Below are positions 11,681-52,179 of a stretch of 53,349 bases of DNA, piece after piece. This DNA comes from an uncultured archaeon (GTDB lineage: Archaea; Iainarchaeota; Iainarchaeia; Iainarchaeales; GCA-2688035). The stretch's first letter is position 1. Every line of letters begins with the position of its first letter. A program made the position numbers and the translations under genes. The notes beneath the pieces were generated by a model, which saw nothing but the letters and a program-made list of their open reading frames with translations, did no database searches and was not told the DNA's origin. The stretch covers positions 1 to 53,349 of the forward strand of contig CAYHBD010000029.1 of NCBI GenBank assembly GCA_964354805.1, in the 5' to 3' direction.

Positions 11681-11725
11681 AGGCCCAAAAACTAAAAATA
11701 AACCCTTTTTTTAGCTTAGGGCCTA
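11681..11725 (-). promoter_or_regulatory. Hairpin beginning in the stop codon of the aromatic leader peptide; U-rich 3' arm
   Basis: Sense AGGCCCUAAGCUAAAAA pairs with UUUUUAGUUUUUGGGCCU, about 16 bp with one internal loop. Confidence 0.7.
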
Positions 11726-11818
11726 CTTAAAATAGAAAAACCAATATCCGAAAAATCCGCTGCTGGCTCGCAAAAAATCGCTTGAAAAGAAGTTACAGTA
11801 TGCATTTGCGAGCTTCAT
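11723..11818 (-). CDS. Putative aromatic-operon leader peptide (31 aa; 8 Phe, 3 Tyr, 1 Trp)
   Basis: MKLANAYCNFFSSDFLRASSGFFGYWFFYFK*. 8 of the last 10 residues are aromatic. Same strand as and directly upstream of the aro/phe operon. Confidence 0.85.
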   Translation of the reverse strand: MKLANAYCNFFSSDFLRASSGFFGYWFFYFK

Positions 11819-23714: not shown

Positions 23715-23847
23715 TCACGCCTTAATCTTGTTCTGCCTCTTTTTGTTGCCAAAAAACTCATGCCTTTAATTTCCTGCTTTTCTTTGCGGCAAGCGCCCTG
23801 CCAATTCACCCTTTGATCTTACGCTCCTTTTTTGCTGCAAGCGCCTT
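23715..23847 (-). repeat. Three diverged copies of the leuA 3' end
   Basis: Genuine [13 protein letters not shown] (23806-23847); RALAAKKSRKLKA* (23758-23799); LATKR../NKIKA* (23715-23752). Confidence 0.8.
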
Positions 23848-25350
23848 GTTTATTCCCTTAACCAAAGCGTTGGCGCTTGCCATTATCACGTCCTCGTTTA
23901 TTGCCTCGGAATCAAACATGTTTCCTTTTCCGTTCTCAACCCTTACAACAACATCGGCAAGGGCATCAGTGCCGCCGGTGATTGCTTTCAGGTGATACTC
24001 CCGCAAAATAACCCTCTGCGGCAGCATTGACTGGATTGCGTTTGCAACAGCATCAACAGGGCCAACGCCTGCAGCGCTTGCTGTTTTCTTCTTTCCGTCA
24101 ATTTCAAGCGTTACTGTTGCAGTCGGCTTGATTTTGTTGCCTGTGTTAACCCTGACTTCATCAAGCTTTACTCTCTGCTTTTCCTGCACAAGCTGGCCTG
24201 TTACATCTGATGCAATTGCAATAATGTCCTCCTCCAAAACTGTTTTCTGCTTGTCAGCAAGCTGCTTTATTTTTGCATTAACCTGCTGCAGCTGGGCTTC
24301 GCTCAGCCTGAAGCCCAAAGAAGCCAGAACTTGTTTTGCAGCATGCTTTCCGGAATGCTTTCCCAAAACAAGCCTGCTTTTCTTTCCAATTATCTCTGGA
24401 TTCATTATTTCATATGTTTTGCTTGCTGCAATCAATCCGTGCTGGTGAATGCCAGCTTCGTGCGCAAAGGCATTCTCTCCAACAATTGCCTTGTTTCTCT
24501 GCACGGCAATTCCGGTGAAATTTGCAACCATCTGGGAAGCGGGATAAATCTGGCGCAGGTCAATGCCAGTGCTGCAATTGAACAGGTTCTTTCTTACAAA
24601 AATGTTCATTGCAATTTCCTCAAGGGAAGCATTGCCTGCCCTCTCGCCCAATCCATTTATTGTGCACTCAACCTGCCTTGCGCCATTCCTGACAGCCTCA
24701 AGGCTGTTGGCAACAGCAAGGCCAAGGTCATTGTGGCAGTGAACGCTTATTACAACATTGGCAATGCCGGGAACATTTTCTTTCACGCTCTTAATCAGCG
24801 CGCCGAATTCGCTTGGCTGGGCATACCCAACTGTATCAGGAATGTTGATTGTTGTTGCGCCTGCTTCAATCACAGCCCTAACCATTTCAAAAAGGAATTT
24901 TGGCTCTGTCCTGCTTGCATCCATTGCGCTGAATTCAACATCCTTGCAGTAAGAGCAAGCCCTCTTTACTGCTTCAATGCTCATTTTCAATGCTTCTTTT
25001 CTTGAAACCTTAAACTGGTGCTTTAGTTGAATATCGCTGCTTGACATAAAGGTGTGGATTCTGGGCTTTTTTGCATTTTGGATGGCATTCCATGCAACAT
25101 CAATGTCTTTTGGCAATGCCCTTGCAAGAGCGCAGATTGTTGGCCCTTGAACTGTTTCAGCAATCTCTTTCACTGCCTTGAAATCGTCTTCGCTTGCAAC
25201 AGGAAAGCCTGCTTCAATTATATCAACCTTGAGCCTTGCAAGCTGCCGGGCAATGAGGATCTTCTCCCTGTGGGTCAGGGTAGCGCCGGGGCTCTGCTCC
25301 CCGTCGCGCAGGGTTGTGTCGAAAATCGTGACTTTTTCAGCTTTCGCCAT
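23806..25350 (-). CDS. leuA: 2-isopropylmalate synthase
   Basis: [37 protein letters not shown] and LGKHSG motifs; C-terminal regulatory domain GVGPVDA. Confidence 0.96.
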
Positions 25351-25441
25351 TTTTTTCACCTTTGCAAAAAATTATTCACTTTTTCTTCTTTTCCCCTTTT
25401 TTTCACCTTTTTTTTAGCGCCGTGGCTCAACTCATCATTTT

Positions 25442-25477
25442 GCACTCCCAAAATTTGTTCCTTAAAGCCAGGAGTGC
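25442..25477 (-). promoter_or_regulatory. Hairpin 2 nt after the leu/ilv leader stop codon
   Basis: Sense GCACUCCU pairs with GGGAGUGC (8 bp including one G.U). Confidence 0.7.
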
Positions 25478-25479
25478 TT

Positions 25480-25560
25480 TTATCCCAGCAGCAATAGAAC
25501 CAGGACAAGCAAGGCTAAAAGAATCAAGGAATTTTTTGCCAAAAAACTTGCTTTGCTCAT
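25480..25560 (-). CDS. Putative leu/ilv operon leader peptide (26 aa; 11 Leu, 2 Val, 1 Ile)
   Basis: MSKASFLAKNSLILLALLVLVLLLLG*. 13 of the last 15 residues are L/I/V. Directly upstream of leuA on the same strand. Confidence 0.8.
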   Translation of the reverse strand: MSKASFLAKNSLILLALLVLVLLLLG

Positions 25561-25611
25561 CTGGTTCACTGCGAATTCAATTAAAATATATTACAAATTA
25601 TGCATTAAAAG

Positions 25612-25619
25612 TATTTAAA
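25612..25619 (-). promoter_or_regulatory. TATA box for the leu/ilv leader/operon
   Basis: Sense AGAAAGAA-TTTAAATA (BRE plus TATA) about 50 nt upstream of the leader ATG. Confidence 0.5.
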
Positions 25620-25646: not shown

Positions 25647-26639
25647 CTAGAAGAATAAGCCAAGAACATTTGCAAAAAGAAATCCCAATAAAATTGTCAC
25701 AGGCAATGTTAGGACCCATGAAACGCCAATGTCAACAGCAAGCCCCCATCTTACGCTTGAAAAACGCTTTGCAACCCCTGCCCCGAAAATCGAGGCTGTT
25801 ATTGTCTGGGTTGTGGAAACAGGTATTGCGGCAACCGATGCAAGCTGCAGCACAATGCCGGCGCTTGTTTCAGCCGCAAAGCCCTGTTCCGGGCCGAGCT
25901 TTGTAACCCTTAATCCAAGTGTTTTAATTATTCTCCAGCCGCCATAGGCAACCCCAGCGCCTGCAACAAAGCCCATTGAAATAATAACCCAGACTGGAAC
26001 GCTTGGATTCTGCCAACCGTAATAAATTGCCAAAGCCATTACAAGAATGCCCATTGGCTTTTGGGCATCGTTCCTGCCGTGGCTGAAGGCCATGAACACA
26101 GTGGAAAAACGCTGGAGGTTTTTGAAAAGAGCATTCATTCTCCTTGCGCCCCTATAGTGGCTGCAAAAGTGGACTATTTTCATCAAAACAAAGCCGCCTG
26201 CAAATCCAAGCAAAGGAGACACGATTATTGCAGCCAAAACAGCAATCAAGCCAAACCAAAGTATTGCGCCACTACCTGCTGTTGCAACTGCTGCGCCAAC
26301 AATCCCCCCAATAAGGCCGTGGGTTTCGCTTACCGGAATTCCAAAATAATAGGTTAGCATGCTCCAGCTCATTGTTGCCAGCAATGCGGCAAGCACTGTT
26401 GAAAGAGGGATGGCATTGAATGCAACAACACCTGTTCCAATTGTCAGGGCAACAGCTGTTCCGGTCATTGCGCCTGCTATTTCAAACAGGCAGGCAATAA
26501 AAATAGCCAAACTCGGGGAAATGGACCTACTGCCAACTGCTGTTGCAACAGCATTGGCAGCATCAGTGAAGCCGCCTACAAAAGCGTAAATGTAAGAAAA
26601 AACTACTGTTAAAAGCAGCAGCAACAAAAGCGGCTCCAT
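25647..26639 (-). CDS. pit: Inorganic phosphate transporter, PiT family
   Basis: GFTDAANAVATAVGS, GIPVSETH, HGRNDAQK and PVSTTQ motifs. Confidence 0.93.
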   Translation of the reverse strand: MEPLLLLLLLTVVFSYIYAFVGGFTDAANAVATAVGSRSISPSLAIFIACLFEIAGAMTGTAVALTIGTGVVAFNAIPLSTVLAALLATMSWSMLTYYFGIPVSETHGLIGGIVGAAVATAGSGAILWFGLIAVLAAIIVSPLLGFAGGFVLMKIVHFCSHYRGARRMNALFKNLQRFSTVFMAFSHGRNDAQKPMGILVMALAIYYGWQNPSVPVWVIISMGFVAGAGVAYGGWRIIKTLGLRVTKLGPEQGFAAETSAGIVLQLASVAAIPVSTTQTITASIFGAGVAKRFSSVRWGLAVDIGVSWVLTLPVTILLGFLFANVLGLFF

Positions 26640-51768: not shown

Positions 51769-52179
51769 TTATTTTTTTTCAATTACCATAAAGCTTTCTG
51801 TTTCTGTTACACCGGCAATTTCCCTTATCTTGTCAATTTTTTTGTTCAGTTCTCTCGCTGTGGGAGCGCTGAGAATGCAGAAAACATCAAAGCGCCCTGT
51901 TACCTCAAAGAGCGGCGCAATTTTATCCAGCTCCTGCACTTTTCTTGAAACCATTTTCGTTGCCTTTGGCCTGCATTTTATTGCAACAATGCTTTCAAAG
52001 GCAAGCCTCCTGTCCAGATTGATTGTAAAGCCCTTAATTATGCCAGTTGCGTGCAGCTTTTTCACCCTTTTCCTGACCATGCTCTCGCTCACATGCAATC
52101 TCTTTGCAATTGCGAGAAAGGGCATTCTGCTGTTTTCCTTTAAAAATTCAAGTATGTGCAAATCAGCCTGGTCAAGCAT
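51769..52179 (-). CDS. Lrp/AsnC family regulator (LysM-like)
   Basis: LDQADLHIL..L.ENSR.PF..IAK.L.VSES.VRKRVKKL HTH and VTGRFD; next to argG. Confidence 0.93.
   Translation of the reverse strand: MLDQADLHILEFLKENSRMPFLAIAKRLHVSESMVRKRVKKLHATGIIKGFTINLDRRLAFESIVAIKCRPKATKMVSRKVQELDKIAPLFEVTGRFDVFCILSAPTARELNKKIDKIREIAGVTETESFMVIEKK

Follow-up and report, generated by a model that had tools for sequence, protein, structure and literature searches.

The leu-ilv operon of an uncultured archaeon of the Iainarchaeota (Diapherotrites, DPANN) is headed by a small leader open reading frame (ORF), the features of which point to a cis-acting sensor, read by the ribosome, through which the levels of charged tRNA-Leu and tRNA-Val would control the operon. 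Judging from the sequence comparisons described below, we put the probability of this reading at roughly 85%. The window (the whole stretch of DNA analyzed, 53,349 nt) comes from a genome of 1.38 Mb that is 88.5% complete. The operon has the order leuA-ilvBHC-ilvD-leuCDB on the minus strand, and the leader occupies the gap between leuA and an unrelated transporter-like gene ending at 25647 on the same strand. The features of the locus are as follows:

25612–25619, minus strand: probable TATA box, TTTAAATA, preceded by A-rich sequence that resembles a BRE
25566–25569, minus strand: Shine-Dalgarno (SD)-like GUGA of the leader ORF, in which GTG is also an in-frame alternative start
25480–25560, minus strand: leader ORF, 26 codons plus UAA, with a homologous ORF at 47 of 50 Iainarchaeota leuA loci
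25483–25527, minus strand: control codons, i.e., the last 15 codons of the leader ORF (10 Leu, 2 Val, and 1 Ile)
25362–25441, minus strand: A-rich untranslated spacer from helix B (see below) to the leuA SD, very variable in length among relatives
25360–25356, minus strand: leuA SD, GGUGA
23806–25350, minus strand: leuA, a bacterial-type 2-isopropylmalate synthase (TIGR00973, above cut-off) with a GTG start codon
15750–23708, minus strand: the remainder of the operon (ilvB, ilvH, ilvC, ilvD, leuC, leuD, and leuB), above NCBIfam cut-offs except leuD, which was outside the profile scan and is named by motif and position

Given the position of the TATA box, the leader mRNA would carry a 5′ UTR of about 30 nt. 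The 3′ end of the 16S rRNA in the source genome bears the anti-SD CACCUCC. In most family relatives, TTTAAA lies 46–59 nt 5′ of the ATG, and in most other lineages (about half of the relatives) the TATA-to-ATG spacing is 26–31 nt, as expected of leaderless transcripts. Matches to LeuA at E ≤ 1e-100 were obtained in 48 of the 215 genomes of the phylum Iainarchaeota, which, together with one partial locus and one metagenome contig, provided 50 leuA upstream regions. A short ORF (~21–40 codons) with a Leu-rich terminal run was present in 47 of these. Two of the three exceptions have leuA directly behind ilvE, and the third contains a Leu-rich frame without the usual start codon. The N-terminal halves of the leaders are unrelated among loci; the stop codon is conserved, and the third-last residue is Leu in 47/47 leuA leaders. 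All six Leu and all four Val codons are used across the leaders, and the conserved alignment columns are those with T at codon position 2, recurring with a period of three. A previous reading of this DNA from its letters alone (hereafter, the sequence-only reading) had noted that 13 of the last 15 residues are Leu, Ile, or Val and that five different Leu codons (TTG, CTT, TTA, CTG, and CTA) occur; both observations hold for the ORF at 25560–25480 (minus strand), with only one of the 13 residues being Ile. This count of 13/15 is the genome maximum among short intergenic ATG-ORFs (2,295 unique ORFs scanned, of which ~1,470 had sufficient length for scoring), the runner-up reaching 11.

A covariance model of the element yielded one match per genome in 22 of 151 genomes, and none of the matches across the 151 genomes lay away from leuA or ilvB. 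Three matches were outside the training set, two 5′ of leuA and one 5′ of ilvB, and the last of these, also held out, is likewise Val-rich. The leader ORF is, in short, a real conserved regulatory element. We could not extend the element beyond the Iainarchaeota, as 12 of the 13 Micrarchaeota leuA loci checked showed no clear leader. The sole leader-like ORF among those 13 loci is a weak candidate (L137, in the Micrarchaeota-phylum genome G251) of 35 codons, ~200 nt 5′ of leuA, with a Leu-rich middle and an Ile-Ile-Ile end. By eye, two leuA matches from Veillonellaceae showed a T-box-like motif upstream in place of a leader ORF.

The codon content of the leaders follows the gene content of the operons. 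Val is found in the last seven codons in 25 of 25 operons with ilvB and in 0 of 21 leu-only loci, a window length picked post hoc, after the data had been seen. Over the last 10 codons, the mean is 2.5 Val in ilvB-containing operons (n = 25) versus 0.19 in leuA loci without ilvB (n = 21), where four leaders have one Val. Val in the tail and ilvB in the operon agree at 46/46 loci, and each trait changes five times on the LeuA tree; only three of the contrasts are independent and well supported (five on all branches), with a sign test p of 0.25. Each of the seven stand-alone ilvB operons examined had its own Val-rich leader (on average 3.4 Val in 10 codons). Six of these leaders have Val in the penultimate position, and six of the seven genomes carry a leuA leader that lacks Val in the final seven codons. 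Of 540 tail codons, 7 encode Ile. In the comparison with the genome's membrane segments, Ile occurs at 15 of 540 positions versus ~76 expected and Phe at 1 versus ~63, and Phe, Ile, Met, and Trp together account for 17 positions versus ~156 expected for membrane helices; these counts are drawn from related sequences and hence are not independent. From these patterns, the leader very probably reads Leu and Val. The sequence-only reading had proposed an ilvL/leuL analogue sensing all three branched-chain amino acids; its core stands, in that a conserved leader ORF behaves as a codon-run sensor, but sensing of all three is unsupported because Ile is depleted in the tails, and Ile sensing by the leuA leader was accordingly rejected.

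The same counts bear on the idea that the ORF encodes a small membrane protein or signal peptide that lies 5′ of leuA fortuitously. Such a peptide would fit the basic N-terminus and the 15-residue hydrophobic stretch, yet the near absence of Phe (1/540) leads us to reject it, as the comparison of relatives' leuA upstream regions suggested in the sequence-only reading found tails that keep Leu and Val and shun Phe, Ile, Met, and Trp. In addition, charged residues fall within the run in 8 leaders, some runs are just 5–6 residues long, the composition switches with operon content, and leuA lies in a random frame relative to the ORF. The conserved stop codon indicates that the leader is not a signal peptide, and the RNA model matches only 5′ of leuA or ilvB, so neither of the objections anticipated by that reading (a signal peptide of a longer protein, or homologs off the operon) was borne out. 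We regard a membrane peptide as scarcely credible.

Ile is probably read elsewhere, at a separate upstream ORF (uORF) of cimA, as far as codon content can indicate. In the source genome (G000), a cimA-type paralogue has its own 11-codon ORF (contig C22, 17202–17237, minus strand) with one Ile codon. This Ile is part of a conserved R-I-L motif, a D-x-R-I-L-like end is common to relatives, and a U8 tract follows directly. Similar ORFs, which form a candidate Ile sensor, occur in L020, L023, L024, L027, L028, and L030. No threonine dehydratase was found at the family cut-off in the source genome at its 88.5% completeness. Separately, two stand-alone ilvB loci from two families (L107 in G040 and L109 in G037) have Leu/Val-rich leader frames without an ATG. 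Both show, exactly 154 nt 5′ of the leader stop, an SD-like AGGTG and then ATCGTAC, and a +1 shift at CTT-CTN would join the frame of ATCGTAC to the Leu/Val run. An AUC start combined with a frameshift at Leu codons is possible in these two genomes only.

The RNA around the control codons and stop codon is predicted to form several helices:

25442–25477, minus strand: helix B, a stem of 8–10 bp beginning 2 nt 3′ of the stop codon (arms 25477–25468 and 25451–25442)
25450–25453, minus strand: U4 tract at the top of helix B, with a UU that is (nearly) invariant in 31 aligned leaders
25491–25572, minus strand: helix H0, the SD/start region of the leader (25572–25547) with control codons (25513–25491), from the minimum free energy (MFE) fold
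25467–25489, minus strand: helix A, the last two codons (25489–25483) with 25473–25467, which excludes helix B; a family-level feature
25423–25470, minus strand: UGGCUU/GAGCCA alternative helix (25470–25465 with 25428–25423), predicted solely in the source genome

Helix B, which the sequence-only reading had described as an 8-bp stem starting 2 nt after the UAA, was recovered with the arms listed above. Its 5′ arm begins 0–3 nt 3′ of the stop codon in 52 of 54 leaders, while plain MFE folding gives 45 of 54. When arms were swapped with those of the nearest relative, the native combination paired better in 34 cases and the swapped one in 10. Six of seven pairs have changed on both sides, in a model-fitted alignment that leans towards structure. 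The fold of the whole leader is no more stable than shuffled sequences (z of −0.12), and only the local helices are. Archaeal ribosome footprints end ~11 nt from the A-site position (PMC7261190), and we set the ribosome to mask 9 nt past the A-site codon to match this footprint. When the third-last codon occupies the A site, helix B is predicted to form (P > 0.5) in 51 of 54 leaders, falling to 35/54 at the second-last codon, 6/54 at the last codon, and 0/54 at the stop codon, where the zero follows from the masking itself. The invariant Leu would thus mark the last stall position that spares helix B. In these models, helix B behaves as a universal conserved element that reads ribosome position, and it takes the position of an antiterminator, with terminator geometry absent.

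The closeness of this stem to the control codons also suits a different reading, in which the ribosome would pass from the leader on to the leuA start by frameshifting or readthrough at hungry codons, comparable to a His +1 shift seen at another site of the source genome. The stem stands 6–9 nt after the last control codon, like the spacing of shift stimulators, and in the source genome the +1 frame is open (25356–25508, minus strand) to a TGA that overlaps the leuA SD/GTG. In many relatives, however, the +1 frame closes at once, the ends of the −1 frame are scattered, and the frame of leuA with respect to the leader takes all three values, which makes this reading very improbable.

Support for the competitors of helix B (A, C, and H0) is confined to particular lineages. 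Pairing of the start region with the control codons, as the sequence-only reading had it, is present in the MFE fold as H0, which in the source genome has a z of −3.5 (0/200 shuffles as stable) and beats synonymous recodings (p = 0.025), as it does in 9 of 11 family members and in few leaders outside the family. Helix A was compared with synonymous recodings in the same manner, giving p ≤ 0.05 in 8 of 11 family members and p = 0.06 in the source genome; as a universal element it was rejected, showing no covariation across the full alignment. Helix C is strong in one clade and degenerate in the source genome, and it overlaps the 3′ arm of helix B, by several nucleotides in most members. A universal pseudoknot was discarded, given that helix C is strong in that clade only and usually overlaps helix B. 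The UGGCUU/GAGCCA pairing from the sequence-only reading does appear in the predicted fold of the naked RNA of the source genome, at nearly equal energy (−56.1 vs. −55.3 kcal/mol), but it was dropped as a family element, with a shuffle p of ~0.07 here and only 2 of 11 members at p ≤ 0.1.

Leader-like ORFs are not confined to the branched-chain operons. An F/Y/W-rich leader of 31 codons lies at 11683–11818 (minus strand) in the window, 5′ of an archaeal-type aroA′-aroB′-pheA-aro operon, and its stem (11722–11683) begins at its stop codon and buries long U-tracts. A cognate tail with a stem at the stop codon was found at 15 of 17 aroA′ loci (L134 and L135 lack it), with sequences unrelated to the leuA leaders, and in one clade the aromatic leaders show a competing hairpin followed by U4-5. 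A Trp-rich ORF on contig C2 of the source genome (29628–29732, plus strand) is followed by U-rich hairpins and tRNA-Trp. In the genome-wide scan of short ORFs, the top rank for F/W/Y content went to the ORF at the aromatic operon, and that for Trp to the ORF at tRNA-Trp.

We propose that the lead ribosome would translate the mini-ORF while the RNA is still being made. Under a shortage of Leu or Val, it would stall in the codon run, at least three codons before the stop codon, and helix B, just outside the footprint, would be free to fold, a state that would correspond to the operon being ON. When both Leu and Val are ample, the ribosome would proceed to the stop codon and cover the 5′ arm of helix B, which would be blocked. 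After release, helix B would be replaced by helix A (in the source family), helix C (in other lineages), or the UGGCUU/GAGCCA helix (in the source genome).

The output of such a sensor can only be inferred, because the locus has no bacterial-type terminator and the competing helices differ from one lineage to another. A bacterial terminator scan returned no intrinsic terminator (G+C stem plus U-run) between the leader and leuA in the source genome. Given the sensor, we lean towards premature termination at U-tracts in or after helix B via FttA (aCPSF1), with control of leuA translation plus polarity considerably less probable and mRNA decay and other routes less probable still; this ranking is the least certain part of the model. 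A U4 tract follows helix B in 8 of 11 family members. No U-tract follows it in the source genome, where the U4 is predicted to be base-paired in either state as soon as downstream RNA has been made. Overall, U4 is present in or ≤25 nt after helix B in 46 of 54 leaders versus 39 in dinucleotide and 17 in mononucleotide shuffles, an excess over the former that is only modest. FttA/aCPSF1 and Spt5 are both encoded in the genome. Nascent RNA is threaded through FttA over positions −1 to −36, where the factor favors U at −23 and between −30 and −36 (PMC11616081); a hairpin forming as the 3′ arm of helix B emerges could thus block FttA.

The same sensor could instead act on translation, with the control codons or an arm released from helix B blocking the leuA ribosome binding site (RBS) and polarity acting downstream, on the pattern of mycobacterial poly-Cys leaders or the actinobacterial LEU element. 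This is a variant inside the sensor model, not additional to the probability given for the sensor, and on balance we find it rather unlikely. In the L054/L076 clade, the predicted fold with the ribosome at the stop codon does pair the freed arm of helix B with the leuA SD region, and stalling is predicted to make the RBS more accessible at 9 loci and less accessible at 2. Pairing between control codons and the RBS, however, beats synonymous recodings in only 3 of 47 cases (p ≤ 0.05), the accessibility of the RBS in the source genome is 0.58 in both states, and the leader stop codon and leuA start are mostly 76–220 nt apart with an A-rich spacer between them. The genome's Trp-rich leader, moreover, precedes a tRNA gene, which is not translationally controllable, and so argues for an RNA-level output in the source genome. 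A role of the 5′ arm of helix B as an anti-SD was rejected, with no enrichment seen. A local U6/A-rich hairpin (25352–25371, minus strand) is predicted over the leuA SD whichever of the two ribosome states is modeled, and weak hairpins of this kind are visible in some family members.

Regulation by Lrp-family proteins is the usual archaeal mode, and the genome encodes three Lrp/AsnC domains. An Lrp/AsnC-type DNA-binding regulator might act at the promoter, with the ORF and hairpin being vestigial or serving as 5′-end stabilizers. We consider this improbable as a full account, since it leaves unexplained a conserved open frame with synonymous variation, the gain and loss of Val in step with ilvB, and the fixed distance from stop codon to stem in two unrelated leader families. 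Lrp-type control could nonetheless operate in addition to the leader. One of the three domain genes, with an Lrp/AsnC ligand-binding domain, is found at 51778–51987 (minus strand) in the window and could add promoter-level control.

Taking the termination output together with the other leaders, we tentatively suggest, at somewhat less than even odds, that the Iainarchaeota use ribosome-read attenuation as a family-wide strategy (Leu/Val, aromatic amino acids, and probably Trp and Ile), in which a hairpin abutting the stop codon would gate the access of FttA/aCPSF1 to a U-tract; this would amount to functional evidence of coupling in DPANN archaea. Transcription-translation coupling is not an established feature of DPANN archaea, and the archaeal evidence for it has been called scarce (PMC13681488). 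If our reading is true, an archaeal ribosome can steer a downstream operon co-transcriptionally, which bears on the coupling question. Attenuation would have been rebuilt on the archaeal termination machinery, supposedly host-dependent DPANN archaea would retain fine control of amino-acid synthesis, and the codon content of leaders would be re-tuned upon operon rearrangement. The 130-nt cassette is testable in Thermococcus or Methanococcus.

Leader-peptide attenuation is a textbook bacterial mechanism, and the two-codon Met-Trp ORF 5′ of trpY in Methanothermobacter is a partial archaeal precedent. No archaeal leader-peptide attenuator was found in the literature searched, the coverage of which left out most subscription journals. 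In E. coli trpL, the antiterminator lies where a helix begins right after the leader stop codon, as helix B does here, and the Leu and Val content of the Iainarchaeota leader recalls ivbL of ilvBN. The likeness to leuL, ilvL, and ivbL (Rfam Leu_leader, RF00512) lies in a short initial ORF that contains a run of cognate codons (for the principle, see 10.1101/834739). The Iainarchaeota differ from these in that their promoter and polymerase are archaeal, the source genome lacks a terminator made of a G+C hairpin and U7-8, the control codons extend up to the stop codon, and the competing helices are lineage-specific; ilvL, furthermore, codes for Leu, Val, and Ile, whereas the tails of the Iainarchaeota leaders have Leu and Val codons but few for Ile. 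Neither Rfam Leu_leader nor other leader families gave a relevant match at gathering or E-value thresholds.

The actinobacterial LEU element 5′ of leuA (PMC1262725) is similar in its Leu-run ORF without an obvious terminator, and the geometry of helices B and C in one Iainarchaeota clade would permit a pseudoknot. The pairing between Leu codons and the leuA SD that defines the LEU element (PMC1262725), however, is not enriched in the Iainarchaeota, whose leader tracks Val as well and whose helix C is degenerate in the source genome. In the poly-Cys sORF attenuators of mycobacteria (Ms5788A; 10.1101/834739), the control codons likewise occupy the very 3′ end of the first ORF, which is often leaderless, but their codon tract pairs with a downstream SD (10.1101/834739), and that of the Iainarchaeota does not. 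The poly-Cys sORFs are also leaderless, as the TATA-to-ATG spacing would suggest for about half of the Iainarchaeota relatives, but the leader of the source genome seems to carry an SD in a short 5′ UTR. In the Rho-dependent attenuation of E. coli tnaC, a ribosome near the leader stop codon gates the access of a termination factor to the RNA. With FttA (PMC11616081) as the factor, ribosome position near the stop codon would similarly gate access to U-rich RNA in the Iainarchaeota; in contrast to tnaC, their leaders have no conserved arrest-peptide residues, stalling is predicted to come from tRNA shortage, and FttA is the presumed factor. Set beside these systems, the Iainarchaeota leader is very probably, with an output that we infer, an archaeal variant of the bacterial leader-peptide principle.
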